Positions 4,698-47,843 of a stretch of 64,000 nt of DNA are shown here, piece by piece (within the stretch, counting starts at the first letter, position 1; every line of letters starts with the position of its first letter). The notes beneath the pieces were generated by a model. The model worked only from the letters and a program-made list of their open reading frames with translations, had not been told where the DNA came from and ran no database searches. This DNA is from Candidatus Latescibacterota bacterium (GTDB taxonomy: Bacteria; Latescibacterota; UBA2968; UBA8231). The stretch spans positions 3,488,001 through 3,552,000 of the forward strand of contig OZ252098.1 in the NCBI GenBank assembly GCA_965248355.1. The letters run 5' to 3'. The position numbers were made by a program, and so were the translations under genes.

Positions 4698-5402
4698 CTA
4701 GCCATTCGGCCCGGGAGGCGTTCCAGCAAGTTCCAGCCAGCGCCGGAAGTGCGGGCATGCGGACCGAATCGCGTCGAGCCCGACTTGGATAGAGGCCAAG
4801 CTACCCATCAACGGCTTTTGATACCCGGGCACAAGCTCGGCCACGCGCTTCGAAGGTGCAGTGTCCGGCGAGTCATCGATTTCTTCCGGACTGGCGAATT
4901 GGTCTCGAATCTCCTGGAACCTATGTGTCAGTTCGGGGCGCCCGATTCCTTGGCCGAATCGGTCACAATCACTGAATAGCAGGGCTTCGAACTCGTGCAT
5001 TGCCACATACGCTATGAATCGCTTCTGATCGAAGTCCGAGCCCATTTCAAAGGCGATGTCCTTCGAGAGCGCATCTTCGACTGTGGACGCTCTCTCCGAT
5101 GAAGATCCGTGCCTGGTAGCTTGCAGGCGCCCAGGCCATGCCCTTGGACCAGTTTCCGGCATCCCGTAGTAGTCCACCATTGTGGTGGCAAGGCACCCTG
5201 GATCTTCCTTCAGGTGATTTGCGATCTCCCTTCGCACCGTGCTCCACGCCCTGGCTCCGCCACGCCGGTCCCGCTGGCGAGCGTTTCCAACCAGACGTGC
5301 GCCGACTCTGGAAAACCCATGACCATAGAGATGCGGCGCCAGCAGTTCGTTGACGAATTGCTCTTCGGTCTGGCCCTCGACATGGACAAGCAGCCGGTTC
5401 AC
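4698..5402 (-). CDS. DUF4276 family (TOPRIM-like) protein
   Basis: VHVEGQTEE, TTMVDYYG, HEFEALLFSD, APSKR and CPHF motifs; GTG start overlaps the ATPase stop (GTGA). Confidence 0.8.
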   Translation of the reverse strand: MNRLLVHVEGQTEEQFVNELLAPHLYGHGFSRVGARLVGNARQRDRRGGARAWSTVRREIANHLKEDPGCLATTMVDYYGMPETGPRAWPGRLQATRHGSSSERASTVEDALSKDIAFEMGSDFDQKRFIAYVAMHEFEALLFSDCDRFGQGIGRPELTHRFQEIRDQFASPEEIDDSPDTAPSKRVAELVPGYQKPLMGSLASIQVGLDAIRSACPHFRRWLELAGTPPGPNG

Positions 5403-6267
5403 GGTGAGAATCCACGGTTGTCCTCCTGCGAAGGACGTCCGCCGATTTCGTTCTTTTCCCAAAGCTGACCCAGGCTGTACTCCTCCAACCAGGCTGCGAG
5501 GTTCTCGCCGTCCAGCCTTCGGAGCGTCGTTGCCCCCTCCACTCGGTCGGCCACGATCACGTCTTCTGGCTCGAAATGATCCAGCAGCACCGGCGACTGC
5601 GTCGCGACGATGATCTGCGATTCCACGGACGCCTGCTTCAGCATGGAAGCCAGCAGAGTGATGGCAAAAGGATGCAGTCCCAGCTCCGGTTCATCCAGAA
5701 GAACTACGGAAGGCCGAAGCGAAGCCGGCTGAAGCAGGAGAGTGGTCAAGGCGATGAACCTCAGCGTGCCGTCGGACAGGGATGACGCGTCGAAGTAGGC
5801 GTCCGATCCGGAATGCCGCCATTCGAGACGGATCGTGGCTTCGTTCAGAGCCTGAGGTTCAAGGGCGAAGTCATCAAGGAAGGGCGCCGCCAATTGAACG
5901 GTGCGAAGGATCTGCGTGTAGGATCCGCCATGCTTCTCTCTGAGAAGAAACAAGAACGCAGCGAGATTCGAACCGTCAGGGCGAAGGTACCGATTGTCAT
6001 TCACCTCGGCGGTCGCTTTCATCGGCGACGCAGAGCCGGTGTCGTGAAAGTGGTAAAGCTGCAAACCTTCGATGAGTCGGCGAACGTGCTCCGGCGGTAG
6101 AGGATAACTCCCTGAATCGTCCCAATTCACTTGCCCTGTTTTCTCGCCAGGGAGACCAGACGGATGGTAGCCCATGATACCCACAAAGAGCCCATCGGAA
6201 TCGTTTCTGCCCAATTCGATTGCATACCCGGCCCTGTCTTCGTCAAAGGAGACTTGCATCTCGAGTT
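5399..6267 (-). pseudogene. 3' part of AAA_21/ABC-type ATPase interrupted by IS256
   Basis: LSDGTLR signature, Walker B LLDEPELGLHP and ATQSP; joins in frame to the 5' part at 10816. Confidence 0.85.
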
Positions 6268-8541: not shown

Positions 8542-9915
8542 GTGAGGTTCAGAAAAGAAGACATTTTGGCCCGTTTTCACAAGCTCCCGCATCTTCGCTT
8601 CGAGGATCAACAGCTGACTTCCTTTGCGGGAGCCATCGTTTTTCAACTGCTCTTCCGGCGCCTGGATCTGAAGACTCGGCTGAAGTCGTGCTTCCCCGCC
8701 AAGAGCTCCGCGATCTTTGGTCCCCATCTCATGGTGTTGTTGCTCATCGTGCATCTGCTGCTGGGCTTCCGGCGGCTGCGAGACATGGACTATTACCGGG
8801 ACGATCCGGTGGTGCTGCGTCTGTTGGGCTTGCGCCGCCTGCCGGACGTGGCCACCCTCAGTCGCGCCCTCGCAAGAATGGGCCGTTCGAGTATCGAAAA
8901 AGTGCGCCACCTGTCTTCGGTCCTGGTGGTGCAGGCGCTCCAGCGCGAGCGGTTCCCCCGTCTGACCCTCGACTTCGACGGCTCGGTGATCTCCACTTGT
9001 GGTCATGCCGAAGGGACCGCCGTGGGCTATAATCCGAAAAAGAAAGGGGCGCGCAGCTATTACAACCTGTTCTGTACGGTGGCGCAGACCGGACAGTTCT
9101 TCGATGTCCTTCACCGCCCCGGCAACGTCCATGACAGCAAGGACGCCCATGCGTTCATGATGGACGCCTTCGATCGGGTGCGCGACGCGCTGGCGCCTAC
9201 CGTGCTCGAGTCCCGACTCGACAGTGCCTTCTTCAGCCAGGACACGCTCACGCTCCTGGACCTGTATGGCGTCGAATGCACGATCAGTGTCCCTTTCGAA
9301 CGCTTCCCCGTACTCAAGGACCAGATCGAAGCGCGCCAGCGCTGGCGCTTTCTCGATGAACACTGCGCCTATTTCGAGAGTGACTGGAAACCCCAACGCT
9401 GGCCCGCCTCGTACCGATTTCTCTTGGTCCGCCGTGCGGTCGCGCGTCAGACCAAGGAACCGCTGCAACTGGATCTGTTCGAACCCCGGCCCATCGATCA
9501 TGAGTACCGCGTTCTGGTGACCAACAAGAGGATCTCGGCCCGCCGCGTGCTCCTCTTCCACTATGGCCGCGGCGCCCAGGAAGGGATCTTCGCCGAGGCC
9601 AAGCAACAGGCCGGGCTGGATCTGATCCCCACCCGGCGGCTGCTCGGCAACCAGATGGTGACTTTGTGTGCGATGATGGCCCACAATCTGGGACGCGAAA
9701 TGCAGATGCGGGCGCAGGCGCGATCCAACTATTCGCGCGCCAAACGCCCGGCGGCGTGGACCTTCCAGACCTTGGACACTCTGCGTCATCGCTTCATTCA
9801 GCGCGCCGGGCGCCTCACTCGGCCCAAGGGCGAGTTGACCCTGACCCTGAACTCCAATCCAAAAGTGGAAAAAGATCTGTTGCATTTCCTCGAAACACTG
9901 AAGGATGCCGCCTGA
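8542..9915 (+). CDS. IS1380-family transposase
   Basis: LTSFAG, LDFDGS, RPGN, RLDSAF and YGRGAQEGIFAEAK motifs. Confidence 0.9.
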   Translation: MRFRKEDILARFHKLPHLRFEDQQLTSFAGAIVFQLLFRRLDLKTRLKSCFPAKSSAIFGPHLMVLLLIVHLLLGFRRLRDMDYYRDDPVVLRLLGLRRLPDVATLSRALARMGRSSIEKVRHLSSVLVVQALQRERFPRLTLDFDGSVISTCGHAEGTAVGYNPKKKGARSYYNLFCTVAQTGQFFDVLHRPGNVHDSKDAHAFMMDAFDRVRDALAPTVLESRLDSAFFSQDTLTLLDLYGVECTISVPFERFPVLKDQIEARQRWRFLDEHCAYFESDWKPQRWPASYRFLLVRRAVARQTKEPLQLDLFEPRPIDHEYRVLVTNKRISARRVLLFHYGRGAQEGIFAEAKQQAGLDLIPTRRLLGNQMVTLCAMMAHNLGREMQMRAQARSNYSRAKRPAAWTFQTLDTLRHRFIQRAGRLTRPKGELTLTLNSNPKVEKDLLHFLETLKDAA

Positions 9916-10815
9916 TCACACCACCGCCTTCAAACAGATTTATGCAACGTTAGGGTACAGGCCCTTGCCTCCATCGATCACCACGAGCAGCCCGGCTTCG
10001 TATTGCAGGCCCCGCTCGACCAGCTCCGCCAGGAAGCGGCGACAGACGCGCTCGTTCTCGGTGGCCGCCTGCACGAAGCCCAAGGGCACCTTCTGGCCCT
10101 CCAGAGTCACACCCAGGGCGATGAGGATCTCCTCGTCGGCGAAGCTCTTGCCGTCCAGAAACAGCGCCACCAGGTCGTAGCCTTCCAAGGATCGCTGCTG
10201 GAATTCGGCCAGCTTGCGCGCCGTGCCTTTCACGTACCGGCGAGAGACCGAGGAACGGGACAGACCGAAGGCTTGCGGGACGGTCTCGGCGCAGGCCTCG
10301 TAGTTGCGCGTGGCCAAGCCCTTCAGCACCCGCAACAACAGCCCCTGGTCCATCTGCCTCGGCGTCTGCAGGGCCTGATAGGCCTCCAGCGGGACCTCGG
10401 TGCCGCGGACCACATCGCGCACGCGCGGCACCTCGACCGGCAGTTTCTGATCGCCCAGGTACACCGACCCGGCCTGCGCCCCCCAGCGGCGCAACGCCTG
10501 ATCCGGACCCTTGCGCTGATACCGAGGTCCGGCCAAGGCCTCGACCGACTGCTGCAGCTCCTCCGAGACCGCCTGCAGACCCAAAGGGATCAGCAGCTGG
10601 ATGACCTCGATGCGAGTCTCCAGATCGTCCATCGACGCGGTGGCTTGGCGGTTCACGGGGCCGATGGCCACGGTCCGTTTGACGCCCTTCTTCCGTGCTT
10701 GTAGCTTGCTCATGGCAGGCTCCTTGGGTTACCGATACGAGGCTTCTTGGGGATTTCTCGTATCAAACGTAACGATGGGAGCCTGTGCTATTTCAACTAA
10801 GATCGGGACAATGCC

Positions 10816-11055: not shown

Positions 11056-13995
11056 CTACACCCGGAACACCTTCATCACCTCGTCCCCGAGGTGGTTGAT
11101 CACCTTCACCGCGATCCGGCCCGACGCCGGCTTGGGAAAAGGCCGGGAGGTGTCGCTGTGCAGGGTCTCCCAGGCTTCCTGGTTGATCTCGGCCTTCAGC
11201 GTCGTCCGCAACGCCTTGTAGGGATCGCTGGCGCCCAGGAAGTAGGCGTGGCGGACGAAGAAGCTCTCCTCGTTGTAGTCGCTGTCGACGAACCAGCAGG
11301 CGATGCCGTCGGCGTTGTCGCTGCGGATTTCTCCGGTGTTGGGGTGGAACACGTCGACGCCGTTGACCTTGACCTGGATCTGTCCGTCCTCTGCGTCGAG
11401 CAGGTCGATGTCCGGCTCGCCGAAGATGACGAAGAGGTTGCCCTTGCCGGTGTTCTTGAGGTCGTCGGCCATGTGGAGGTCGGCGTTCATGCGCGCCTTG
11501 AGGACCGGGACGCGGCCGAGCTTGCTGAACTCCGAGGCGTGGGCGTCGTAGTTGAAGGCGCAGGCGACCAGCACGTCGAAGTCGGCGTCGGCGGCCTCGC
11601 GCACCGCCGACACGAGATCGGGGCGCGAGACGGTGCCGAACTCCGGGCCGATGAAGATGCCGGCGCGTCTCTGGGGCCCGGAGTCGCCGTTGCCGTCGAG
11701 GTAGGTCCCCTCGGCGCAGACGAGGTCGCCGGGCCAGGGCCTGATCCCGGAGAAGGAGATGCGGTCCTCCTTGTGGGCCTGCTGGACGCCGGTGGTCTTG
11801 AGGTTGTCGAGGATCATCCCGGCGAAGTCCTGCTTTTCGCCGTACCCAAGGCTGGCTTCGGCGATGTTGTCGATGAGCTCGTCGTTCTCATTGACACCGA
11901 GCAGGCGGTGCGGAGAGAGGCTCTCCACGGTGAAGGGACCGGCGACGCGGACCTTCCTGTTGTCCTCGTAAGGCTTGTCGTAGAGGTATTCGTAGTCGGC
12001 CTTGGCGGCGATGGAGGCGTCGATCTCCTTCTGCCGGGCGATGCGCTCCTCCCACCAGAGGCTGTGAAGGTCGGATGCCTCCGCGGCCCAAGGGTCGCGC
12101 GGCTGGGCGGGAACGTCCTCGAGGGCGTACTCCCGGCCCAGCGCCCTGTTCAACTCGCGCAGGGCCGAGGACTTCTCCCCGTCCGTGCGCGCGGCCTGGA
12201 CCCTGCCCCAGGCCCGGGTGGCCGCCTCCGGCCACGGGTCACCCACCTCCCGGGGAATCTCCCACTCCTCCCACTCCTGGTACAGCGCCGCGTTCAGCTC
12301 TTCCCTCAGCGGCTCCAGCCTCTCCTGGAACTTCTCCCAGATCACGTCGATCTCGGCGTTGTTGGCGATGGACTTGAGGGTGATGTGGGGGACGCGCTCG
12401 TACACGAAGCCCTGGCGGATGTCGTTGTACGTGGGCGCTTCCGAGGGGGCCTTGCGGGAGATCTCGCCTTCCTTGACCTGGCCGTCGCGGCTGTCGGCGA
12501 GCAGGTAGTAGGGATAGCGGGCGCCCATGATGCGGGCGCGGGCGAGCGCGAGGGCGACGCGGGAGGTGTCGATGGTGATCCAGCGGCGGCCCCACTGCTC
12601 GGCGACGTAAGCGGTGGTGCCGGAGCCGCAGGTGGGGTCGAGGACGAGATCTCCGGGGTCGGTGGCCATTAGGATGCAGCGTTCGACAATCTTGTGCGCG
12701 GTCTGAACGATGTAGAGCTTATCACCGCCCACGCTGCTTCCAACATCTGACCAGATGTTGGTAATTGCCTTCACAGGAAAATCTCGGATGAAACGGACAT
12801 AGTTCAGAGTTCTTCTCCCCTTCATTAAGCGGTTGGCAAATAATAACCGCCTCATGCCCTCTTCATTTGTCTTCCATCGAGCCTTAATGCTTGGTCGAAT
12901 CTCTGCACCCTCAATGGATACGGGAAACCAAGACGCAGCCCCCTCACCTTTATCACGCCCCATGCTCTGGCTTGTCATGTCACTTAGACGAAAGTAATGA
13001 CCTTCGGATAATTCGAGCCCTTGACGCACAGCCTCCATCTCACGCAATCGTTGCCCGTCAGCAAACTCTATGAACTGATATGCCTGCCCACCCGAGCCAC
13101 CCGGCGCTTTCTCAAGGTGTTGAGTACGATACTTTAACTGTCGATGATCTTTTGCATACCATAGAAGGAAGTCAGCGGTGTTTGACAGGTAATCCTGAGT
13201 CGAACTACTCGTTTTCGTGACAGTAATCAGACTTACAAAATTGCCGTCACCCATAGTTTCGTCCAACAACGCCCGCACCCGATGCACATTCTCGTCCCCA
13301 ATCTGCACGAAGACCGACCCGCTATCAGTCAACAAATCCCGCGCCACCGTCAGCCGATCCCGCAGATACGTCAGATACGAATGAATCCCGTCCCGCCACG
13401 TATCTCGGAACGCCTTCACCTGCTCCGGCTCGCGCGTGATGTGCCCGGCGTTGCCGTCCTTGACGTCGCGGCTGGTCGTTGACCACTGGAAGTTGGAGTT
13501 GAACTTGATGCCGTAGGGCGGGTCGATGTAGATGCACTGCACCTTGCCGCGCAGCCCTTCCCGCTCCGCCAAGGACGCCATCACCTGCAGGCTGTCCCCG
13601 AGGATCATCCGGTTCGACCAGTTGGCGTCGTGCTGGTAGAACTCCGTCTGCGCGTCCCCCGCCGGCAGCCCGTTGAAGTCCGCGAACAGGTCGGCCTGGT
13701 CCTCCATCTCCCTGGTCCGCTGCCGCAGGTCGTCGATCAGGACCTTCGGATGCACTTTCTCCTGGATGAACAGCGGCGGCGCCTGCACCACCAAGTCCGA
13801 CCAGTCCTGCTCGTCCTTGCCGCGCCAGACAAGCTGCGGGTCGAGGTCCGGGTTGCGCCGCTCATACGCGACCCTGACCGGATTGCGGTCGTCCTCCGCC
13901 ATCACCGCCTGGTACTCGGCCGTGGGGATGTTCTTCCGCGATGCCTCCTGGTGCCGCAGGCTCTCGACGGTCTTCGTCGACTTTCGTTTCGTCAT
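11056..13995 (-). CDS. mod: Type III-like R-M adenine DNA methyltransferase (Mod, beta class)
   Basis: IYIDPPY catalytic motif precedes LVLDPTCGSGTT SAM motif; C-terminal IAVKVINHLGDE. Confidence 0.9.
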   Translation of the reverse strand: MTKRKSTKTVESLRHQEASRKNIPTAEYQAVMAEDDRNPVRVAYERRNPDLDPQLVWRGKDEQDWSDLVVQAPPLFIQEKVHPKVLIDDLRQRTREMEDQADLFADFNGLPAGDAQTEFYQHDANWSNRMILGDSLQVMASLAEREGLRGKVQCIYIDPPYGIKFNSNFQWSTTSRDVKDGNAGHITREPEQVKAFRDTWRDGIHSYLTYLRDRLTVARDLLTDSGSVFVQIGDENVHRVRALLDETMGDGNFVSLITVTKTSSSTQDYLSNTADFLLWYAKDHRQLKYRTQHLEKAPGGSGGQAYQFIEFADGQRLREMEAVRQGLELSEGHYFRLSDMTSQSMGRDKGEGAASWFPVSIEGAEIRPSIKARWKTNEEGMRRLLFANRLMKGRRTLNYVRFIRDFPVKAITNIWSDVGSSVGGDKLYIVQTAHKIVERCILMATDPGDLVLDPTCGSGTTAYVAEQWGRRWITIDTSRVALALARARIMGARYPYYLLADSRDGQVKEGEISRKAPSEAPTYNDIRQGFVYERVPHITLKSIANNAEIDVIWEKFQERLEPLREELNAALYQEWEEWEIPREVGDPWPEAATRAWGRVQAARTDGEKSSALRELNRALGREYALEDVPAQPRDPWAAEASDLHSLWWEERIARQKEIDASIAAKADYEYLYDKPYEDNRKVRVAGPFTVESLSPHRLLGVNENDELIDNIAEASLGYGEKQDFAGMILDNLKTTGVQQAHKEDRISFSGIRPWPGDLVCAEGTYLDGNGDSGPQRRAGIFIGPEFGTVSRPDLVSAVREAADADFDVLVACAFNYDAHASEFSKLGRVPVLKARMNADLHMADDLKNTGKGNLFVIFGEPDIDLLDAEDGQIQVKVNGVDVFHPNTGEIRSDNADGIACWFVDSDYNEESFFVRHAYFLGASDPYKALRTTLKAEINQEAWETLHSDTSRPFPKPASGRIAVKVINHLGDEVMKVFRV

Positions 13996-14367
13996 CTATA
14001 CGGAGTCCTCGTTGGTCGTACTCAGCAGGGTTCGCAACTCTGGCAGCAGATCTGGAATCGCATCTTGAATGAGTGTCCAGATGATACCGTTACTGATGCT
14101 CAGATAGCTGTGGGCCAAGCGGTTGCGCGTCCCCACAATCGCATGCCAGGGAATGTCCTGGTACGCCTCACGCACCTCGCTCGGAATATGGGTTGCTGCC
14201 TCGCCGATCAGTTCCAGATTGCGCAGGGTGGCGTCATAGGTGAGTCCATCCGCGATGAACGCGTCCTGATCCAGGCCCTCGGTATAGGTCAGCACCTTCT
14301 CGCTGAATTCGATCATGTCCTGAACGTAGAACCGCCATTCTCGCGCTCCTTGCTCAGCATCAGACAT
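13996..14367 (-). CDS. HEPN/DUF86 (HepT-like) RNase toxin
   Basis: LELIGEA, IPW and RNRLAH (RX4H) motifs. Confidence 0.85.
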   Translation of the reverse strand: MSDAEQGAREWRFYVQDMIEFSEKVLTYTEGLDQDAFIADGLTYDATLRNLELIGEAATHIPSEVREAYQDIPWHAIVGTRNRLAHSYLSISNGIIWTLIQDAIPDLLPELRTLLSTTNEDSV

Positions 14368-14650
14368 TGATCACCTCCCGCTCCACGTAGGGGCGAATCT
14401 CGGCGCGAAGGTCCTGATTGGTTGCCAGGTCCACGGGCCGCCCTAGTAGCTCTTCCAAGTAGCCTTGAGCTCCGAAATAGCGTTGCCAATTTGGGGGCAT
14501 GCCGAACCGCACCAGGACGTCGACGTCGCTGTCGTCGGTAGCCTGGTCACGCGCGAAGGAACCGAACAGGGCGAGTTCGGTGACGCCAAAGCGTTCGGAG
14601 AGTGTCGCCTTGTGGGTTCTGAGCACCTTCAGGACTTCATCCCTGTTCAT
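14360..14650 (-). CDS. Minimal nucleotidyltransferase (MNT) antitoxin
   Basis: FGSFARDQATDDSDVDVLV (GSx10DxD); ATG 14650 with RBS. Confidence 0.85.
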   Translation of the reverse strand: MNRDEVLKVLRTHKATLSERFGVTELALFGSFARDQATDDSDVDVLVRFGMPPNWQRYFGAQGYLEELLGRPVDLATNQDLRAEIRPYVEREVINV

Positions 14651-14681
14651 TGACCCTCTCCCTTCCGTGCCAGTCGTCGGA

Positions 14682-14870
14682 TCATCCGATCCGTGGAACG
14701 GCGAGGTTCGCGCAGATCTCGCGGACGAGCAAGTTGTCCACTTCCACGTGGCGCGGAATGGCCGTCTGCCGGTCACCACGAGCGTTCTGCCAGATCGAAT
14801 GCCGGCGACCTGCGCGTAACAGCGTGCAGCCGTGCCGCCGCAAATGCCTGAGAAGCGTCGTGCGCTTCAT
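14682..14870 (-). CDS. hicA: HicA family toxin
   Basis: 62 aa basic protein, GRRHSIW and IPRH; ATGA overlap with hicB. Confidence 0.85.
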   Translation of the reverse strand: MKRTTLLRHLRRHGCTLLRAGRRHSIWQNARGDRQTAIPRHVEVDNLLVREICANLAVPRIG

Positions 14871-15076
14871 GCAACGGAGATCTTTGCCGTCTCATAGCCG
14901 TCCCCGGCCGCCGATCGGGCCGCCTGGCGTCTGATCTCCAACATCTCCCCGAGCGTGACGGCGAGCGTGTCCACGAGCTCTTCGCGGGTGCGTTCCTGGC
15001 AGGTCACGCCGGGTACTTCCTGGATCCAGCCGATCCACCATTCGCCCCTGCGATTCACGATTGCCGTGTATTCCAT
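14867..15076 (-). CDS. hicB: HicB family antitoxin (short form)
   Basis: WWIGWIQEVPGVTCQERTREEL. Confidence 0.85.
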   Translation of the reverse strand: MEYTAIVNRRGEWWIGWIQEVPGVTCQERTREELVDTLAVTLGEMLEIRRQAARSAAGDGYETAKISVA

Positions 15077-15311
15077 GTTCGTTCCTCTCTCGACTTCTGA
15101 ACTTCCTCACTGGGCATTGGAGTTCCCTTGGCACTTCCGACGCCTCTCTGTCCCCTCTCGCAATTTGTCAAGTGCCACGGTCTTTCCGGTGCAAAGGTGG
15201 TGCTGTATTCCGGAGCCGAGTGGCTAAAGCCTGGTGGTCTGTTCCTACGCACCATTTGCGCGACCTCCTCTCTCAGATTTTGGGGCGCTGTACCCGCCAC
15301 GGAGTGGCTAG

Positions 15312-18300
15312 TCATTCGCTGGCCTGGATCTCCACTTCGGAGCGAAGCTCCTCAACCAAACGATTGAACGCAGCTTCCACCTCGAAGACATCCGTAAACT
15401 CGGCAAATACCCAGCGCCCGTAGTCCCCGTGGTTGTTCACCCCGGGGACCCAGTAGGTGTCCATGGTCGCCTTCTTGTCCCTGGCGTCCTCCCCCCGGTA
15501 GCCCTTGATCTCGACGACCAGGTGCAGGAGATCTTCCTCGCCTTGGCCGTCGTCGACGAGGACGATGAAGTCCGGCAGGTAAGTCCGCGTTTCGGAGCCG
15601 GAACGGTAGGGGACCTCCAGGCCGAGGTTGTGGTTCTTGACGTAGGCCCTGACCTGCGGGTGGGACTCGGCGACGCGGCAGAACTCCGCCTCCCAGTCGC
15701 TGTCGAGGACGACCCAGTTGATGTGGCAGCGGCGGGAATCGGTCTGGTACCGGCTGGTTTTGGTGGTGGTGAAATTAACGTGGGCCGTGGAACCGACGGG
15801 ATTGTATGGATCGAGTACGGCCTTGACTGGGCGACGGTCAATTCCCGCTTGCGTGATGGCCGCGGCGATGCGCTCGCAGGCCGTGTCGGCCAGTTCCTGG
15901 TACATGAGTTGGGCGGGATACGTGCCCCCCTTGCAGACGAGATAGCCGTTGAGCCACTGCCTGGTGATCCGCTTGAGCTGTCCGAAGAGATGGAGCTTCG
16001 GCTCCTCGCCCGGGTCGCGGTATTTCGTGTAGAGGAGGCGCTGGGTCAGGTGGAACAGCAGGGTCGAGGTCCGCAGGCCGTCGGTGTGAACGAGGTTCAG
16101 GTCGACCCCCTCGCCGATGATCCCCTGGTTTCTCGTGATCGAGGGACCGACCACTTCGGGGGTCAAGCTGAACTCCGAGACTTCGTTGAACTCGGCTTCG
16201 AGCCGGTCCTCCGGCAGCTCCACCCGGTACCCGGCCACCCGGGGGAAACGGATCTCCAGCGCGTCTCGTTCCGGGCGCACCGCCCGCACGTGGACCGTCG
16301 GTCTCGGCGGCTTCGCCGGGGCCAGGACTGGCTTGGCGGTAAAGTCGAAGGGGATCCCCAAGACGTCGGCGTACTCGACGTCGAACAGGCCGTCTTCGTT
16401 GAGGTCGTATGACTGCCGCCGCAGGGCGCGGCCGACGACCTGCTCGCAGAGCAGCTGCGTCCCGAAGGCACGGACGCCGAGCACGTGGCTGACGGTGTTC
16501 GCGTCCCACCCTTCGGTCAGCATCGACACCGACACCACGCAGCGGATCGAGTCCCCGAGCCGATCCTCCTTGCCGACGGTGTTCATGACCTCCCGGAGGA
16601 GGTCCTGGTCGGTGATCTTCTCCGCCTGGCGGAGGTCGCCGGTGCGCTCGACGATCTCCCTGCGGAAGCGCTCGATCTCGTCGGCGGCCATGTCGCGGAA
16701 GTTCCTGTCCAGCGCCTCCCCGGACTCCAGCTGCTCGCTGTCGATCAGAAGGGTTCGGGGCCTCGGGAGTCGAGTGCCGTCCTCGTCGAAGTTGCGGAAC
16801 AGCTCGAGGCGCCCGTTCTCCAACGTCGTCGGGCGGTTCTCGTTCTCGCGGTGGAAGCCGGAGATGTAGTCGTAGACCAGCTTGGAGGTCGAGGTGTTGT
16901 TGCAGACGATGATGAAGCAGGGAGGCACGGAAATGCCGGCCTCCTGCATCATTTCAAAGGTTTTGCGGTAATGGCCGTACAGCGCCTCCAGAGCGGTCTG
17001 CAGCTCAACGGGCAGGCTCAGGGGATCGAGGTGACTAACCTTGCCCCGCCCCTTCTTCGGCATGTCCTCGCGGATATGCTCCCACAGGTTGCGGAACTTC
17101 GGCATGTCGCCGCCGGGGATGTTGTCGGCCACCGGCACCCGGGGCAGCTTGACGATGCCGCACTCGATGGCATCCATGAGCGAGAAATCGCACATCGTCC
17201 ACGGGAAAAGGGTGCCTTCGGCGTAGCCGGACCCGCGCAGAAAGAAGGGGGTCGCCGAGAGGTCGAATACCCGGTTGATGCCGAGCTTTTCGCCGACGGT
17301 TTCCAGCCCCGAAATCCACAAGCGGGCGGCCTCCGTGTTCTTCTCGGCCTCCTTCCTGTCGTCTCCCTTCAGCGTTTCTTCCTCGACCTCTCCCGGCTTC
17401 TCGCGGTAGCAGTGGTGGGCCTCGTCGTTGAGGACGAGGACGTTCTTCATGCCCATGAGCTCCGGCATGACCCGCTGCAGCATCTGCCCCTCGGTCTCCA
17501 GGGTCGCCAGCGACTCGCCCCGTCCCTGGAGCAGGGAACGGCCCCCCTTGGACAGCTCCATGCGCTCGCGCAGCTTGAAGGCGTGGTAGTTGGTGATGAC
17601 GATCTTCGCCTTCTCCAGGTCGGAGCGCATGTCGTTGGGGACCAGCTCGCGGCCCTGGAAGTAGCTGTCGGGGTCGTTCGGCTGCAGCACCCGCAGGCGG
17701 TCCTTGATGGTGATGCCCGGGGTGACGACGAGGAAGCCGCGGGTGAAGCGGCTGCTCTGGGGCCGGCGCACCGCGTTTATGGTCTGCCAGGCGATCAGCA
17801 TCGCCATGACCGTGGTCTTGCCGGCGCCGGTCGCCAGTTTGAGGGCCAGCCGCGGCAGGTCCGGGTTGGCCTCTTCGTTGGCGTTGGCCAGATGGTCGAG
17901 GAAGTCGCGGCCGGCACGCGCCCTGGGCGCCACCTCGGTGAGCCAGATGGCGGTCTCGGACGCTTCGAGCTGGCAGAAGAAGGGGCGGATGCCGCTGAAG
18001 TGGTGGTGCCGCCAGTGCCGGAGCAGGCGGGCTGTCTCCGGGGTCACCTGCCACTGGGCCTCCGGCAGCTCGCGCCAGCGGTCGACCTGCTGGCGGACCC
18101 CGTTGATGATGGCGGTCAGGTCGTACTGCTGGCCATCGGTCCCGAGCTTCTGGGCCTTCTCGTCGAATACGAGCCTGGCCTGCTGCGCCGAGCCTTTGCG
18201 CTTCCGGGGCTTCGGGATCGGCGTGATGAACTCCGCCTGCCGGCGGCTCTCGATGGTCTTATGGGTCGGCTGCCCGGTCTCGTCCAGCTCCCATTGCCGG

Positions 18301-18356
18301 GACGGCCGCTCGTAGGGAGAGTTGAGAATTGGTCCTTTGAAGAAAGCTTCAGTCAT
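15312..18356 (-). CDS. res: Type III-like restriction endonuclease/helicase (Res)
   Basis: LATGAGKT Walker A, NDEAHH, LSATP, MLTEGWD, QVVGRALRR and C-terminal PDF...VEIKG nuclease. Confidence 0.9.
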   Translation of the reverse strand: MTEAFFKGPILNSPYERPSRQWELDETGQPTHKTIESRRQAEFITPIPKPRKRKGSAQQARLVFDEKAQKLGTDGQQYDLTAIINGVRQQVDRWRELPEAQWQVTPETARLLRHWRHHHFSGIRPFFCQLEASETAIWLTEVAPRARAGRDFLDHLANANEEANPDLPRLALKLATGAGKTTVMAMLIAWQTINAVRRPQSSRFTRGFLVVTPGITIKDRLRVLQPNDPDSYFQGRELVPNDMRSDLEKAKIVITNYHAFKLRERMELSKGGRSLLQGRGESLATLETEGQMLQRVMPELMGMKNVLVLNDEAHHCYREKPGEVEEETLKGDDRKEAEKNTEAARLWISGLETVGEKLGINRVFDLSATPFFLRGSGYAEGTLFPWTMCDFSLMDAIECGIVKLPRVPVADNIPGGDMPKFRNLWEHIREDMPKKGRGKVSHLDPLSLPVELQTALEALYGHYRKTFEMMQEAGISVPPCFIIVCNNTSTSKLVYDYISGFHRENENRPTTLENGRLELFRNFDEDGTRLPRPRTLLIDSEQLESGEALDRNFRDMAADEIERFRREIVERTGDLRQAEKITDQDLLREVMNTVGKEDRLGDSIRCVVSVSMLTEGWDANTVSHVLGVRAFGTQLLCEQVVGRALRRQSYDLNEDGLFDVEYADVLGIPFDFTAKPVLAPAKPPRPTVHVRAVRPERDALEIRFPRVAGYRVELPEDRLEAEFNEVSEFSLTPEVVGPSITRNQGIIGEGVDLNLVHTDGLRTSTLLFHLTQRLLYTKYRDPGEEPKLHLFGQLKRITRQWLNGYLVCKGGTYPAQLMYQELADTACERIAAAITQAGIDRRPVKAVLDPYNPVGSTAHVNFTTTKTSRYQTDSRRCHINWVVLDSDWEAEFCRVAESHPQVRAYVKNHNLGLEVPYRSGSETRTYLPDFIVLVDDGQGEEDLLHLVVEIKGYRGEDARDKKATMDTYWVPGVNNHGDYGRWVFAEFTDVFEVEAAFNRLVEELRSEVEIQASE

Positions 18357-18402: not shown

Positions 18403-19212
18403 TCAATCCCAGGGATCCACCCCCGCCAGCTTCCGCCCAAGGCTGGTCAGCTCGGCCGTCTTCCCTTCGCGGGCCTCCCGTTCCTCGGCGTAGCGCCCCA
18501 GGCCGGACAGCCGCCGCTGCCAGAAGTCCGTGCGCTTCCGCCGCGCCTCTTCGCCATCGCCGGCGGGACCCATGGTGATGTACTGGGCCACGCGGGGACT
18601 GTCGCCGCGGTTGAGGCTCGCCGTGTGCGGCAGGGCGGTACGCCAGATGACCAGGTCCCCCGCCTCGGCACCGATGCGCCGCGTTCCCAGGGCCAGCAGG
18701 TCCTGCGCGCGGGGATCGGCCCCCTCCGGCAACTCGTCGAGCCACGCCTCCAGGCGCTGGTGGAACCCGGGCACGCAGACGAAGGCGCCCTGCTCGGCGG
18801 GCGTGTCGTTCAGATAGAGAACACCCTGCACGCCAAATGACAACGGACGGTTATCCAGGGACGCGTCCCAGTGCAGACCGTGCTCGGGCGCATCCTTGTC
18901 CGGGGCCGGCGGACTGATGCTGGCCCGGTCGTGGCTGACCCACAGCTTGTCCGTGCCCCAGATCTGGCTGAAGGCCCGGTGGACCCGGGGGGCCGTGCGG
19001 TTGTCCCACATGGTCTGGTGCTGGTAGATCTCGACCATGATGCCGGGCCGGTCCTCCGGGTACCAGGTCCCGGGATCGTCCGGGTCCATGCCCGTGAAGG
19101 CCCACACCGCCCGCGCGGTGCGCTCCGCCTGGTCGCGGTCGATCACCTGACGAGCGACGACATACCCCTGTTCGGCAAAGGAATCGAGCTCTTCACTGCT
19201 CAGGACATCCAT
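18403..19212 (-). CDS. PhyH-family Fe(II)/2OG dioxygenase
   Basis: F.EQGYVV, LHWD, VPGFH, AGDLVIW and LPH. Confidence 0.85.
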   Translation of the reverse strand: MDVLSSEELDSFAEQGYVVARQVIDRDQAERTARAVWAFTGMDPDDPGTWYPEDRPGIMVEIYQHQTMWDNRTAPRVHRAFSQIWGTDKLWVSHDRASISPPAPDKDAPEHGLHWDASLDNRPLSFGVQGVLYLNDTPAEQGAFVCVPGFHQRLEAWLDELPEGADPRAQDLLALGTRRIGAEAGDLVIWRTALPHTASLNRGDSPRVAQYITMGPAGDGEEARRKRTDFWQRRLSGLGRYAEEREAREGKTAELTSLGRKLAGVDPWD

Positions 19213-19293: not shown

Positions 19294-19977
19294 TCAGGGC
19301 CCTGCGGCCTCGGGTCTCTTCGCCAGCTGTTTCAGGACTTCCCTCTCCAGTTCCTCGTAGTCGATCTTCCCCGTCCACTGGGCCACGATCCGGCTCTCTC
19401 CATCGAGCAGATACATCGCCGGAATCGCCTTCACCTTGAACTGGTACCAGGCGGGCGTCTCTTTGGCGTCCACAAAGATGGGATAGGTGATCTCCAGCTT
19501 GCCCACCATCCTCCTGATCTTCCTGACCCGGTTTTTCTCTTCGTCGATGGACACACCCCACACGTCGAACCCCCTGTCGGAATAGGCGCCGTGGAGCTCC
19601 TGCAACCGGGGCATCGTCTCGAGACAGGGCTTGCACCATGTGGCCCAGAAATCCACCAGCACGACCCTGCCCTTCATGTCCTCCAACGCCATGTCCCCGC
19701 CGTCCAGCATTTCAACAACGCAGTCTGGTGCGGGTCGTGGAAAGACCGGTGGCAGGTAGGCCACGGGATCCGAGTCGAACTCCACTTTGCACTCTTCAGA
19801 GCAGAAGTAGTACGCCTTCCCGTCATGTTCCGAATGGGCCTTGACCTTCTCCAACTCCGTCTCGCCCCCTCTCAGTGCACAGACAGTGCAAAGGGCCTTG
19901 TCGGGAACCTGGACTTCGGCCATAAGCGCGGCCGAACCCGCCAGGACAATCGGAAACAGGAACCTCCAGTAGCGCAC
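19294..19977 (-). CDS. Exported YHS-domain + TlpA thioredoxin-like protein
   Basis: Signal peptide, CTVC...YYFCSEEC...FDSDP (YHS/TRASH-like), DFWATWCKPC; RBS GGAGGA. Confidence 0.88.
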   Translation of the reverse strand: MRYWRFLFPIVLAGSAALMAEVQVPDKALCTVCALRGGETELEKVKAHSEHDGKAYYFCSEECKVEFDSDPVAYLPPVFPRPAPDCVVEMLDGGDMALEDMKGRVVLVDFWATWCKPCLETMPRLQELHGAYSDRGFDVWGVSIDEEKNRVRKIRRMVGKLEITYPIFVDAKETPAWYQFKVKAIPAMYLLDGESRIVAQWTGKIDYEELEREVLKQLAKRPEAAGP

Positions 19978-19986
19978 GGATCCTCC

Positions 19987-20655
19987 TCACCAGAATCCAA
20001 GAGAAAGGGAGAGGCCCATGGTCTCGAGCCACACATACATCAGGCTGACACCGTATTGGGCGGCGAAATAGTTCAGCAACAGATGTCCCCGGTCGCCATC
20101 GTACATCGGTCGAAGTGAAAAGCCCTTGCCCAGTTCAACCCCCGCGCCAACGGGGAGATTGAACTTCCCATCCCATTCCGAATAGTTCAGACTGCCGTAG
20201 AGGGACGTGCGCACCCAGGGTATGTACTTGCTGACAGTGGCGAACCAGGACTGCTCTCCCGCCGGCGAGCCGATTCGATCCGAGCTCGTGCCCAGGAAGA
20301 GCGCAGGACGCCTCTCCGTCTCGGTCAGCAGGAACAGGGTCGCAAGCGGTCCCGCCTCTCTGGCCTTGGGATTCACCTCGACGCCGACCTGCAGGCGTTC
20401 GTGCAGGCGGTAGTTGGCGGTGAACCGCCACTGGGGACGGTCCATTGAGGTATCAACATACCGTCCCGATAGCGTGACCTTCCTGTGAATGCCGCTCCCC
20501 CGGAGCGGTGCGCCTTCGCCGGGTCAGCCCACTCAGGTGGGCGTCATCGAGAAGACCGGCCGTTCGCTCCGCGTAGAGTCCTCTGGCGCTTCCAGGGCAA
20601 GGACAGGCGACGTGCCCAGGTATGGGAATAGAAGAAACAGGAGACTGAATCTCAT
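19987..20655 (-). CDS. Putative selenoprotein with UxxU motif: signal peptide plus beta-barrel-like domain (222 aa)
   Basis: ATG 20655 with RBS GGAG; MRFSLLFLLFPYLGTSPVLA...TPT-TGA-GTG-GGC-TGA-PGEG... in frame with ORF 19987..20445; SECIS-like hairpin follows. Confidence 0.75.
20492..20508 (-). promoter_or_regulatory. Candidate bacterial SECIS hairpin
   Basis: CCGCTCC-GGG-GGAGCGG; loop starts 22 nt after the second UGA and 31 nt after the first. Confidence 0.6.
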
Positions 20656-20686
20656 CAATGATGCTCCGCTGTGTGGAAGAGTCCGT

Positions 20687-21490
20687 TCATGGTTTGTTGA
20701 GGGACGCGCCCTTCGCCTCCCGCCGCCGCCTCGCCGCCTCCCGTTCCCCCTCGCGCCAGGCCCGGTACGCGGGCGTGTCCACGTGGTCGTGCAGAGTCGC
20801 CCGCGTGCGGTAGGGGACGTAGCTGCCGATGTGCCACAGGGTATTCCGGTAGAGGCAGAAGTCCCCGGCCCCCAGGTGCAGCTGCCGGGCGCCGGGCAGG
20901 GACCGGCAGTACTCCAGGCAGGCGCGCTCCCGCTCCGTCGAGGTGAGACCGTCCAGCTCCGGCCGGGGCACGGGCCGTTCGGGGAAGCGCGCCGCCTCCC
21001 GGGGCAGGTCGGGCCGCAGGTGGGACCCGGGCACCACCCAGGTGGAGGAGTCCTCGTAGAGGGCGCAGTTCAGCTGGTTGAAGAGCGCCGGGTCGCGGTA
21101 GTCGGCCTCCCAGCGCTCGCGGTCGAGGTCGATCACGTTGTCGCGCCAGTCACGGTGCCAGTGGGTGCACCAGGGCTCGTCGGCCGGCTCCAGCAGCACG
21201 CCGAGTTCGCGCCGGCCGTAGGTGTGCTCCGGCGACAGGGTCCGGTGGACGGCGTCCACCAGCTCGGGAAGCTCGGCGAAGTCGGTGAAGGGCCCGTGGT
21301 CGAGATCGTACTCGAAGACCGGCTGCAGACGCTGGGCCTGAGGGCCGGAGCGCTCGCGGGCCAGCTCCCGGGCCCGCCGGCAGACGCGGCGCAGGTCGGA
21401 CAGCAGCGACGGCGGCAGGATCCCGGCGAAGACCGTGTACCCCAACATGCCGTGCTCCTCGATGTGGCGCTCGCTCCAGGTCCAGGACAT
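20687..21490 (-). CDS. PhyH-family dioxygenase
   Basis: WHRD, VVPGSH, AGDFCLY and LWH. Confidence 0.85.
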   Translation of the reverse strand: MSWTWSERHIEEHGMLGYTVFAGILPPSLLSDLRRVCRRARELARERSGPQAQRLQPVFEYDLDHGPFTDFAELPELVDAVHRTLSPEHTYGRRELGVLLEPADEPWCTHWHRDWRDNVIDLDRERWEADYRDPALFNQLNCALYEDSSTWVVPGSHLRPDLPREAARFPERPVPRPELDGLTSTERERACLEYCRSLPGARQLHLGAGDFCLYRNTLWHIGSYVPYRTRATLHDHVDTPAYRAWREGEREAARRRREAKGASLNKP

Positions 21491-45267: not shown

Positions 45268-46974
45268 TCAGGTCCGCGTCCCTTCCATGAGAATCCGCGC
45301 CACCTCCGGCCTGGTGAACTCCATGGGCGGGACCTGTCCCTTGGCCAGCATGTCGCGCACCTGTGTGCCGCTCAGATTCACGCGTTCCTCCGCGCCGTGC
45401 GGGCAGGTCTTCATGGAGGCCATGCCCTCGCAGCGCTTGCAGAAGAAGGAATGATCGAAGAACAGCGGGGTGATGCCCAGGTCGGCCGGGGGCAGGCTCC
45501 GCAGCAGGTCCTGCGCCTCATAGGTTCCGTAGTAGGACCCGACACCGGCGTGATCCCGTCCGACGATGAAGTGCGTGCAGCCGTAGTTCTTGCGGACGAG
45601 GGCGTGGAACACGGCCTCGCGCGGTCCCGCGTAGCGCATCGCCGCAGGCAGGACCGACAGATGCACACGGTCGGACGGGTAGTAGCCCTCCAGGAGGGCC
45701 CCATAGCAGCGCATCCGGATGTCGGCGGGGATGTCGTCCGGCTTGGTCTCTCCCACAAGGGGGTGCAACAGCAGCCCGTCGACGATCTCCAGGGCCGCCT
45801 TCTGGATGTACTCATGGGCGCGGTGGACGGGATTGCGGGTCTGAAACCCGACGATCGTCCGCCAGCCTCGCTCGGCGAAAGCGGCGCGCGTCTCGGCCGG
45901 GTCCTGCCGGTGGGACAGCAGAGCCGCCTCGAGGTCCTCGCGCTCGATGGCGGTGACCGCTCCGCCGATCAGCGCGTCATGCTGCCGGTAGACGGAGGCC
46001 ACGCCGGGGTGCGCTTCCTCCTGGGTGCCGAAGACGCTCTGCGCCTCGACCCTCTTGTCGTACGGATAGACCTCGTCAACCGTGATGACGCCGACGAGGC
46101 GGCCGGCGGGGTCGTGCAGGGCGGCTTCGTCGCCCCTTTCGAGTCCCGAGGCCGCTTCCCAGGGCGCGGACAAGGTGATCGGCAGGCTCCACAAGGTGCC
46201 GTTCGCGAGCCGCATCTCGCGCACCGTGCGCTCATAGTCGCCCCGGCTCATGAAGCCGGCCAGCGGGCTCATCGCCCCGACGGCGATGAGGTCGAGGTCA
46301 GCGGACTCGCGGGGAGAAAGCCCGAGGCGGGGCAGGGCCGAGGCCCGGGCGCGAATCTCCTGCGCCTCCTCCGGCGAGGCCAGTCGGTGGATGAGAGCGC
46401 CCCCGTGGGGCGCGATGGCCGTCATGGTGGCCGTGCCCTGTGGCGCGAATCCCCTCTCCTTCAGCGCGGACAGGACCTTGCCGAGGCTCTCCTCGATGGT
46501 CTCCTCCTCCGTGTTGACCAGGACCTCAGGGCTTGGCGGCGCCTCATACGGGTCCGAGACACCGGTGAAATTGGGAATCTCGCCCTTGAGCGCCTTCTCA
46601 TACAGGCCCTTCACGTCGCGCCGCACCAGCTCATCGAGCGAGGCGTGGACATGAACCTCGATGAAGCGGCCGATCTCCCGCCGCACCTCGTCGCGCACTT
46701 CGCGGTACGGCGAGATGGCCGAGACGATGCTGACCACGCCGTTGCGCGTGAGGAGGTTGCTGACGAATCCGATGCGCCGGATGTTGGTGTCGCGATCCTC
46801 CTTGCTGAAGCCGAGTCCCTTGCTGAGGTTCGTGCGGACCACGTCGCCGTCGAGCAGCTCGCAGTTGATACCCCGCTCCCCGAGGACCGCGAGCAACCGC
46901 TCCGCGATAGTGCTCTTGCCCGCGCCCGAAAGGCCGGTAAACCAGACCGTCACTCCCTGCGGATCTGTCGTCAC
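45268..46974 (-). CDS. sat: Fused adenylyl-sulfate kinase (CysC, N-terminal) and sulfate adenylyltransferase (Sat, C-terminal)
   Basis: [12 protein letters not shown]...[11 protein letters not shown] followed without a stop by PHGG...[11 protein letters not shown]...GRDHAG. Confidence 0.92.
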
Positions 46975-47004
46975 CTTGTTTCCTCCCTTGTCCGGGTTCG
47001 TGTT

Positions 47005-47772
47005 CTATGGTGTGGCGATGCCGGCGCCGTTTCCGGGCGGGATCGCAGTCCTCGAGATGTGGATGCCGCACTCCACCTTGTCCCCGAAATCGGACCAGCG
47101 GCCGGCTCTGCGGTCCTCGCCGGGCCGGACGGCGCGGGTGCAGTGGGTGCAGCCGATGCTGGGATACCCGCGGTCGTGCAGGTCGTTGTAGGGCACGTCG
47201 TTCTCGCGAATGCAATCCCAGATGTCCTCCTCCGTCCAAGTCGCCAGGGGGTTGATCTTGACGAGGTTGAACTTGATGTCCCATGCGACGATGGCGACAT
47301 CCTTGCGCCTGGTGCCCTGATCACGGCGCAAGCCGGCCATCCAGGCGTGCTGCCCGGCGAGGGCCTCCTCGCTGGGCCCGACCTTGCGGATCTCGCAGCA
47401 GAGATCGGGGTCGACCTTCCAGAGTTCCGGGCCGTGCCGTGCCGCCTGTCGCTCGACGGAAACGTCCGCCTTGAAGGCCATGGGACGGATTCCGTAGCGG
47501 CGCGCGGCCCGGTCCTTGAGGGCGTGTGTCTCCGGGAAGAGAAAGCCCGTATCGACGTAGAAGACGGAGACGGCGGGATTGATCTCCATGGCCATGTCGA
47601 GCAGGACCATGCCGGAGACACCGCCAAAGCTGCAGGCGAGCGTGATGTCCGGGAAGAAGGTCTCCAGGGCCCAGCGCACGATCTCCCGCGGGTGGGCGTC
47701 CTCCAGCTCGGCTCTGACCTGTCCAAGCCTCTCCTCGGTCCATTCCGTCCTCAGCGCTCCAATGTCCGCCAT
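47005..47772 (-). CDS. cysH: APS/PAPS reductase, Fe-S type
   Basis: SFG, DTG.LF.ET, CCEIRK, GYPSIGCTHCT, RAGRW and ECGIH; ATG 47772 with RBS. Confidence 0.92.
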   Translation of the reverse strand: MADIGALRTEWTEERLGQVRAELEDAHPREIVRWALETFFPDITLACSFGGVSGMVLLDMAMEINPAVSVFYVDTGFLFPETHALKDRAARRYGIRPMAFKADVSVERQAARHGPELWKVDPDLCCEIRKVGPSEEALAGQHAWMAGLRRDQGTRRKDVAIVAWDIKFNLVKINPLATWTEEDIWDCIRENDVPYNDLHDRGYPSIGCTHCTRAVRPGEDRRAGRWSDFGDKVECGIHISRTAIPPGNGAGIATP

Positions 47773-47803
47773 GTCTTCCGCTCTCCCTCCGTATCTGGCT
47801 GGC

Positions 47804-47843
47804 AAGAAAAAACCCGCCCCCCTTGGCTGTCGGGGGGCGGGTT
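47804..47843 (-). terminator. Intrinsic terminator (attenuator) upstream of cysH
   Basis: AACCCGCCCCCC-GACAGCCAA-GGGGGGCGGGTT followed by TTTTCTT. Confidence 0.85.

Follow-up and report, generated by a model that had tools for sequence, protein, structure and literature searches.

SelL, whose two selenocysteines (Sec, U) form a UxxU motif, is a eukaryotic selenoprotein with a thioredoxin/peroxiredoxin-like fold, and its selenocysteine insertion sequence (SECIS) lies in the 3' untranslated region. For bacteria, Table 1 of a 2026 catalogue (119 selenoprotein families) gives UxxU, as far as that table goes, only for a peroxiredoxin-like (Prx-like) family, the metal-binding protein NF041115 and an FmdB-family protein. 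The only outer-membrane barrels in the accessible portion of the same catalogue are the GSU2204 family and the FCYXU-type TonB-dependent receptor, and nearly all families listed there have NCBIfam or Pfam models. Here, we analyzed a stretch of 64,000 nucleotides from a Candidatus Latescibacterota bacterium (contig OZ252098.1, positions 3,488,001 to 3,552,000; called the window throughout) and describe a gene on its reverse strand, 20655..19987, whose frame runs through two in-frame TGA codons three codons apart. It is very probably a single gene for an exported 222-residue protein composed of a signal peptide, a linker of about 20 residues, a Pro-Thr-Sec-x-x-Sec motif and a 12-stranded barrel. 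Taken as a whole, a two-selenocysteine outer-membrane barrel gene working by the mechanism proposed below is the best explanation of the data, with a probability of roughly 0.78.

Results

A reading frame with two internal TGA codons

Calling of open reading frames (ORFs) with translation table 11 yields at this locus only 19987..20445, a protein of 152 amino acids (aa) without a signal peptide. A preliminary description of the window had claimed a hidden frame upstream of this ORF with a GGAG, a start at ATG 20655, a signal peptide and two TGAs but no further stop, the TGAs being spaced as in CxxC and followed by a 7-bp hairpin, and an aromatic C-terminus reading SLGFW; all of these coordinates and letters proved correct. 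The coding sequence (CDS; 19987..20655, reverse strand, as are all parts of the gene given below) comprises 222 codons and the stop TGA 19989-19987, and from ATG 20655-20653 to this stop the frame is interrupted solely by TGA 20535-20533 and TGA 20526-20524. A putative ribosome binding site, GGAG, was read from the sequence at 20664..20667, 8 nt ahead of the ATG, and a TTG in the same frame lies one codon 5' of it at 20658. The protein begins with MRFSLLFLLFPYLGTSPVLA (residues 1-20, 20596..20655), a hydrophobic N-terminus modeled by AlphaFold2 as a helix over residues 2-20 and probably a signal peptide, with a presumed cleavage site at its end. It continues with a low-complexity linker (residues 21-40, 20536..20595), in which Arg32-Pro33 and Pro39-Thr40 are conserved (alignment A3), and then reads ...MTPT-TGA-GTG-GGC-TGA-CCC GGC GAA (PGEGAPLRGSG), which places the predicted selenocysteines at residues 41 (20533..20535) and 44 (20524..20526). 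The body (residues 60-222, 19990..20478), predicted to be a beta-barrel, contains an invariant GTSSDRIGSP and ends in ...SLGFW, with Phe as the terminal residue in most homologues. The window has a G+C content of 68% and no N. A scan for promoters and terminators showed nothing relevant to this gene, and a window-wide scan for other TGA-interrupted frames (97 candidates) was uninformative since TGA is a frequent stop in this G+C-rich window, being used by this gene and by its upstream neighbour.

Conservation of the frame across loci

A genome scan found 181 relatives, the best 80 of which (L001-L080) were used for all locus counts. These 80 loci carry 13 different phylum labels, among them Latescibacterota, Gemmatimonadota, Poribacteria, Acidobacteriota, Eisenbacteria and Calditrichota as well as Bacteroidota, Fibrobacterota, Krumholzibacteriota, Planctomycetota, Myxococcota and Deferribacterota. 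The frame is kept, and TGA-NNN-NNN-TGA is followed by PGEG, in 79 of the 80; the remaining locus, L026, begins inside the gene at a contig end. Both TGAs are thus invariant in the window and in all 79 loci that reach the site, and the layout of signal peptide, linker, PT-U-x-x-U-PGEGAPLRGSG and barrel is shared by the same 79/80. An in-frame start with a hydrophobic N-terminus was found 25-75 codons upstream in 78/79 loci; the automatic start picks for L036, L041 and L055, which show no hydrophobic N-terminus, are probably too short.

Within a stretch of 60 codons around the site, the two TGAs are the only in-frame stops in each of 79 usable sequences (the window and 78 loci, L012 being left out), far beyond chance, and the other two frames hold on average 1.2-1.4 stops (range 0-4). 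Codon-position differences were determined for 18 close sequences. In the 20 codons preceding the TGAs (-20 to -1) they amount to 0.314 per site at third positions against 0.146 and 0.120 at the other two, in the stretch from the TGAs to the annotated Met to 0.394 against 0.072 and 0.046, and in the barrel body to 0.340 against 0.112 and 0.057. The in-frame UGAs are therefore conserved and have coding-type sequence on both sides. A non-coding leader RNA in place of coding sequence is ruled out by this codon-position pattern, the two-stop frame and the conserved TGAs. As its own stop the gene has TGA in the window, and among 78 loci TGA 33 times, TAA 31 times and TAG 14 times. Since TGA thus acts as an ordinary stop in the same genomes, a genome-wide reassignment of this codon was rejected as well.

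If both TGAs were true stops, the locus would consist of a gene for a 40-residue secreted peptide followed by a separate 152-residue protein from ATG 20445, or it would be a pseudogene. Such an arrangement matches table-11 ORF calling and public annotation, and one relative (L012) looks decayed. It is nevertheless hardly credible, because the TGAs are invariant in 79/79 loci while the flanking codons vary synonymously, and because the 26 codons from the TGAs to Met71 are under purifying selection and include the first barrel strand, so that a barrel started at Met71 would lose both its signal peptide and one strand; in addition, the annotated start positions are not conserved. Conserved TGAs, upstream starts, third-position bias and exactly two stops together lead us to exclude the pseudogene, two-gene and leader readings.

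The relative L012 (Latescibacterota; L012:5070-5138 and upstream) carries a TAG in the signal peptide, altered invariant residues and broken hairpin pairs. Both TGAs are kept, and the YHS-thioredoxin gene beside it is undamaged. This copy seems to be decaying or a recent pseudogene.

Annotation of homologues

A protein search with the read-through query (Sec entered as Cys) returned 706 proteins (clusters at 90% identity) at E <=0.001. Among the matches listed, 118 of 120 are 130-166 aa long and cover only the C-terminal 58-74% of the query, their annotated starts being ATG, GTG or TTG codons at scattered positions just 3' of the TGAs. The preliminary description held that homologues starting at the downstream Met would speak against the longer frame. 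This is not what we observed: the homologue alignment is still conserved upstream of Met71 of the window, and signal peptide and barrel strand 1 also lie upstream. In the two long entries, P0031 (218 aa) and P0070 (233 aa), APT-W-S[GA]-W-PGEGAPL comes after a signal peptide. P0070 corresponds to locus L075, whose DNA carries TGA at both sites, so the W residues in the long entries reflect gene calls with TGA=Trp (code-4-type) and not true Trp codons. A word-based search with residues 21-70, a short query that limits its power, gave three candidates, none at E <=1, from which we read that annotated proteins probably do not hold the N-terminal block of the Sec clade. Hundreds of database entries are accordingly mis-annotated as cytoplasmic hypothetical proteins of about 150 residues, the true form being exported, one strand longer and equipped with two Sec; the extent of this mis-annotation is given by the 706 clusters and by a cluster of structural look-alikes with 1183 members.

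A conserved hairpin downstream of the UGA codons

The hairpin CCGCTCC-GGG-GGAGCGG (20508-20492) has a 7-bp stem (20508-20502/20498-20492) and a GGG loop (20501-20499) and codes for Pro-Leu-Arg-Gly-Ser-Gly. Its start is separated from the second TGA by 15 nt and from the first by 24 nt. In an alignment of 80 sequences (A2), 98.9% of the pair cells of the stem CCGCUCC/GGAGCGG are paired. Two pairs covary, one being G-C in 50, G-U in 13 and A-U in 10 distinct sequences and the other C-G in 49 and U-A in 24. The observed pairing and covariation were reached by none of 500 shuffles, and shifted registers lose the signal. Variation in the stem falls on the third positions of Pro, Leu, Gly and Ser codons and is synonymous. 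Codon choice inside the hairpin is restricted (Leu only CTC/CTT, Arg only CGG/CGT, Ser only AGC/AGT), whereas the invariant Ser and Arg located 9-11 codons downstream use four codons each. Because of these restricted codons and compensating synonymous pairs, we attribute the conservation of PLRGSG in part to the RNA. The Cys-containing sister clade described below, which has PT-C-x-G-C-x-GEA yet diverges beyond it, is consistent with this.

A model of the bacterial SECIS (bSECIS) element given in a 2026 review comprises a stem of 4-16 bp, a loop of 3-9 nt with N1-G-[G|U]-N-N2 and a G within the first two loop positions, a distance of 16-37 nt from the UGA and a minimum free energy (MFE) of at most -7.5 kcal/mol. 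The loop in our alignment reads C-G-[G 67 / U 12]-G-G and begins at a distance of 22 nt from the second UGA and of 31 nt from the first, and the hairpin alone folds with -11.5 to -12.6 kcal/mol. The single hairpin therefore satisfies the bSECIS model for both UGAs on stem, loop, spacing and energy, and what had been proposed as a SECIS candidate turned out to be conserved, with compensatory changes. Selenocysteine is in all likelihood the residue inserted at the UGAs. We propose that SelB bound to this one hairpin would recode both: the hairpin would still be outside the ribosome when either UGA occupies the A site, and SelB could be recruited twice since the loop lies 22 and 31 nt from the UGAs, both within 16-37 nt. 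One hairpin would thereby serve both UGAs.

Reading of the UGAs as another residue, by near-cognate Trp or Cys or other local recoding, would give WxxW or CxxC, and the hairpin would merely slow the ribosome. Gene callers have indeed produced WxxW versions in the databases, but one W-containing protein traces back to TGA DNA, and the sister clade holds Cys, the counterpart of Sec, and not Trp. Loop, stem length and spacing fit a SelB-type bSECIS, including the G/U alternation at loop position 3, and two successive leaky events would leave very little product. We therefore consider insertion of a residue other than Sec very unlikely.

A second small hairpin, CCCAC-CUGA-GUGGG (20527-20540, reverse strand), holds the first UGA in its loop. 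Of the 22 alignment rows in which a GTN codon (Val) follows the first UGA, 20 form all five pairs, with the synonymous pair occurring also as U-A or U-G; the remaining 58 rows do not form the hairpin. It may simply be a by-product of the Pro-Thr and Val-Gly codons.

Predicted fold of the protein body

AlphaFold2, run on a 34-row alignment, gave a model with a mean predicted local distance difference test score (pLDDT) of 76.7 and a predicted template-modeling score (pTM) of 0.73. It contains 12 long strands between residues 60 and 221 with very short connections and an additional 3-residue strand (164-166) within a loop; the body blocks have a pLDDT of about 75-90, and strand 1 (60-67) precedes the annotated Met71. 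The linker and the motif region (residues 27-55) were modeled with pLDDT <50. A Foldseek search against the PDB returned 18 matches at E <=0.001, with FapF first (E 2.8e-5) and a designed 10-stranded transmembrane barrel also among them; KdgM (TM-score 0.63, root-mean-square deviation 4.4), NanC and a designed 12-stranded barrel followed at E 1e-3 to 4e-3. The match probability was 1.00 for FapF, KdgM and NanC. The body had been described as barrel-like and not of thioredoxin fold, and a 12-stranded barrel of the outer-membrane type, as in KdgM/NanC or FapF, is what the model and the structural matches predict. Look-alikes in the ESM Atlas were unnamed bacterial clusters, one of them the cluster with 1183 members mentioned above, and a YjbH cluster, and are regarded as leads only.

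By sequence, neither the full nor the short form of the barrel protein matched a Pfam or NCBIfam family at E <=0.01, so the protein does not belong to the Pfam sequence families of KdgM/NanC or FapF, and a PDB sequence search revealed no relative at E <=0.1. An outer-membrane location of the barrel is a well-founded prediction of the model. In even-stranded barrels both termini face the periplasm, which is why the N-terminal tether would be periplasm-facing and the Sec-x-x-Sec pair, on this flexible segment, may be suspended where a small outer-membrane channel opens to the periplasm.

Cysteine-containing relatives

With a profile built from 34 full-length sequences, a search of 1.84 billion representatives gave 226 matches at E <=0.001, of which 150 were listed and 26 sequences examined. 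Eleven of the 26 (P0151, P0153, P0162, P0224, P0161, P0179, P0147, P0155, P0166, P0169 and P0152) carry xPT-C-AG-C-AGEAR aligned to PT-U-x-x-U and are 27-33% identical to the body of the window protein. Eleven others are barrels without the motif (P0165, P0146, P0251, P0238, P0241, P0257, P0254, P0214, P0200, P0203 and P0204). The 26 also include P0208 with a different CxxC, P0216 with a W..W call of the Sec type and P0131, which begins after the motif.

In a quick maximum-likelihood (ML) tree of 56 rows, with long branches flagged and the root set on one motif-less row, the 34 Sec rows form one clade (Shimodaira-Hasegawa-like approximate likelihood ratio test, SH-aLRT, 97) that is sister to the Cys clade (99), and the motif-less barrels fall outside both. 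The preliminary description had called for a search for TGA or Cys at both codons in homologues; TGA was found in 79/79 loci and Cys at both positions in the sister clade. Neither the 79 loci nor the word-based search described above revealed a Cys form within the Sec clade. Because the Sec clade lacks a Cys form and its only Cys relatives are about 27-33% identical, discovery methods that need closely related Sec and Cys forms can overlook such families.

The distant homologue P0132 reads ...PA-C-VG-W-PGEG... at the two sites and is attached to the Cys clade at 90. These letters could represent CxxU translated with TGA=Trp, which would place the protein between the CxxC and UxxU clades as an intermediate.

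A neighbouring YHS-thioredoxin gene

The gene downstream of the barrel gene (19294..19977, reverse strand) codes for a signal or anchor sequence, a YHS domain (TRASH-like, 4 Cys) and a TlpA/ResA-like thioredoxin domain with WCKPC. It starts at GTG 19977, 9 nt past the barrel stop, and is preceded by GGAGGA. In Pfam, YHS (PF04945) scored 37.3 bits (cut-off 30.3), and AhpC-TSA (70.3 bits), Redoxin (59.5 bits) and Thioredoxin_8 were above their cut-offs. In NCBIfam, ResA reached 91.6 bits, under its cut-off of 170, and the TlpA and DsbE equivalogs were likewise below their cut-offs, so we regard the partner as a domain-level relative and not as a named orthologue. Its N-terminus is hydrophobic, in keeping with an exported YHS and TlpA/ResA-type thioredoxin protein. 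Cysteines C30, C33, C59 and C63 are invariant in 27 partners, and WCxPC is present in 48/48 partners with a readable motif.

A homologue of this partner adjoins the barrel gene in 52 of the 80 loci, usually 13-130 nt downstream; in L003 the distance is 1.8 kb, and L068 has it on the upstream side. Clustering of neighbouring ORFs identified the YHS-thioredoxin gene as the only cross-phylum neighbour. Other neighbours of the window gene are common to 0-2 of the 80 loci, and the other large clusters were dismissed as antisense or alternate-frame shadows or as Poribacteria-specific. In four of the Cys forms (P0147, P0155, P0166 and P0169) a YHS domain is fused ahead of the CxxC-barrel, with one to three matched stretches per protein, and a fifth fusion (P0152) scored 29.7 bits, just below the cut-off. 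Since the YHS module is adjacent to the barrel in the Sec clade and fused to it in the Cys clade, we argue from gene arrangement that the module and the Cys/Sec pair would act together.

Other features of the window

A gene for a 267-aa protein, 31 nt upstream of the barrel gene (20687-21490, reverse strand), belongs to no Pfam or NCBIfam family and has no homologue beside the barrel gene in the 80 loci. A restriction-modification block (11056-18356, reverse strand) ends about 1 kb from the operon of the partner gene. It contains a type III-like methyltransferase (PADLOC MTase_III, 1481 bits), an MntA-like nucleotidyltransferase (14360-14779, PDC-S09) with a small ORF (13996-14367) and a BPTD_3080-family restriction endonuclease (NCBIfam, 1367.8 bits). 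A candidate defence pair was found at 4698-6259 (reverse strand), where ORFs for a DUF4276 protein (PADLOC HEC-01B, 235 bits) and an AAA_21 ATPase (HEC-01A, 329 bits) overlap by about 60 nt. A DDE transposase (8542-9915, forward strand) and a piece of a Mutator-family transposase (9940-10713, reverse strand) sit between the two defence blocks, which suggests a mobile or variable island.

Sulfate assimilation is represented at 45268-47805 (reverse strand) by a fused adenosine 5'-phosphosulfate (APS) kinase/ATP sulfurylase and a 3'-phosphoadenosine 5'-phosphosulfate (PAPS) reductase; enzymes of this pathway also handle selenate. The window further contains three PhyH-type dioxygenase genes (18403-19212, 57134-58009 and 62749-63522) and at least five dispersed GFO/IDH/MocA oxidoreductase genes.

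Discussion

Several observations weigh against the explanation of the locus as a two-Sec outer-membrane barrel gene with the proposed mechanism. The N-terminal segment (residues 21-58) was modeled at pLDDT <50, and the model does not fix its placement relative to the barrel. A 76-nt region around the hairpin folds no better than shuffled sequences (z = -0.88 for a single sequence in G+C-rich DNA), so that only covariation and codon choice carry the RNA evidence. No Rfam SECIS family was matched at the gathering cut-off or at E <=10, where two chance matches were all that appeared. The 64-kb window contains no selA, selB, selD or tRNA-Sec according to Pfam, NCBIfam and ARAGORN (a Pfam search of 64 further window ORFs gave no SelA, SelB or SelD either), and ARAGORN found no tRNA-Sec in 60 loci (L001-L060). 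All 23 Poribacteria loci lack the partner gene beside the barrel gene, as do L004 (whose sequence stops about 120 nt past the gene), L036, L041, L067 and L074; given these absences, the two genes need not occur together at the locus. A conserved metal-transport gene is lacking near the barrel in the loci examined, and the likeness of PT[C/U]xG[C/U] to the MTCxxC of heavy-metal-associated (HMA) domains, which enters the functional proposal below, is a putative one. One paper reports clusters of orthologous groups (COGs) for SelA and SelB in most sponge-symbiont bins of several phyla.

TlpA-type reductases prepare the copper-binding Cys pairs of copper chaperones. We propose that the Sec pair would be kept reduced by the presumably co-transcribed, membrane-anchored YHS and TlpA-like thiol:disulfide oxidoreductase, and that the diselenol would bind a soft thiophilic metal, e.g. 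Cu(I) or Hg(II), and hand it over between the YHS domain and the channel. This soft-metal role is our preferred function, a tentative choice at somewhat under even odds, made because of the YHS modules, the catalogued metal-binding selenoprotein with UxxU, the putative MTCxxC likeness and the role of TlpA. Alternatively, the Sec-x-x-Sec of the same two-Sec barrel could act in redox catalysis or as a switch, alternating between the diselenide and the diselenol and being reduced by the TlpA-like partner; its substrate might be an oxidant or chalcogen compound of the envelope (peroxide, polysulfide, selenite or tellurite), or the channel might be gated by redox state. SelL is cited as a diselenide redox-motif family, all 48 readable partners have the canonical WCxPC thioredoxin site, most known bacterial selenoproteins bear redox motifs such as UxxC or CxxU according to the 2026 review, and UxxU is present in the Prx-like oxidoreductases of the catalogue table. 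On the other hand, the motif sits on a disordered tether without a surrounding thioredoxin or peroxiredoxin fold, and YHS domains, both in the partner and in the fused Cys forms, are annotated as metal-binding and would be needless for a pure redox cycle. A redox catalyst or gate explains the data nearly as well as the metal role, and we consider it possible but rather unlikely.

It is a speculative and on balance doubtful idea that the two-Sec barrel would be the first small outer-membrane channel with a selenocysteine pair as a working part, i.e. a selenium-based selectivity filter or redox gate for a thiophilic metal or chalcogen that is serviced by the YHS-thioredoxin, kept Sec-obligate for a long time across at least nine phyla without reversion to Cys and decoded with one SECIS for two UGAs three codons apart. 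If true, the locus would be an example from nature in which a single bacterial SECIS hairpin decodes two such neighbouring UGAs. With two UGAs and one 17-nt hairpin it offers a compact natural system for studying how SelB serves neighbouring Sec codons, and the barrel and its partner form a defined two-gene module for testing. In poorly known phyla, most of them uncultured (among these Latescibacterota, Gemmatimonadota, Poribacteria, Acidobacteriota and Eisenbacteria), the family also places selenium chemistry at the predicted outer membrane.

The preliminary description had suggested an unannotated outer-membrane family, and this suggestion holds up: there is no Pfam or NCBIfam model and no match in the accessible portions of the 2026 catalogue, none of whose families with NCBIfam or Pfam models, as far as given there, matches the two-Sec barrel protein. 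The accessible parts of a 2022 review and of the GOS paper contain nothing closer. Literature searches returned no description of the family and no match to its motif strings, and supplementary tables might list it. As catalogue, reviews, Pfam, NCBIfam and motif strings all give no match, we regard it as a genuine, widespread two-selenocysteine family that is undescribed in the literature searched. The novelty lies in the protein context and the obligate double Sec; the recoding mechanism is nothing unusual among bacteria.

The pairing of partner and barrel resembles TlpA with ScoI/CoxB and the Cu-induced Scs system, in which a membrane-anchored periplasmic TlpA-like reductase works together with an envelope copper binder that has a Cys pair. 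In contrast to these, the client here is an outer-membrane barrel with Sec for Cys and the reductase has its own YHS; Pfam and neighbour clustering showed no cytochrome oxidase or scs genes near the barrel gene. FapF (5o68), KdgM (4fqe) and NanC (2wjq) share with the predicted body 12 antiparallel strands and a C-terminal aromatic residue, and FapF also has an N-terminal periplasmic extension, but identity is 8-14%, TM-scores are 0.43-0.63 and there is no Pfam match. We know of no CxxC or UxxU motif in these three proteins.

With SelL the two-Sec barrel has the UxxU motif in common, which is able to form a diselenide, but here the gene is bacterial, the SECIS lies within the CDS and the body is a beta-barrel that matches no thioredoxin or peroxiredoxin Pfam family. 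Like our protein, the GSU2204 family (MtrB/PioB-type barrel, NF041027) and the FCYXU TonB-dependent receptor (NF049945) have Sec in an outer-membrane barrel; these are large barrels with one Sec each and with NCBIfam models of their own, which do not match here, in contrast to a 12-strand barrel of about 160 residues with two Sec ahead of strand 1. The catalogued UxxU families agree with ours in having two Sec spaced as CxxC, with UGAs 9 nt apart inside a bacterial CDS. Among them NF041115, with UxxU as here, has a proposed role in soft-metal binding; its NCBIfam model does not match our protein and its HMA fold differs from ours. Whereas the UxxU motifs of the catalogued families belong to ferredoxin-like, thioredoxin-like or zinc-ribbon folds, the motif described here is located on a tether, predicted to be disordered, at the N-terminus of a transmembrane beta-barrel.

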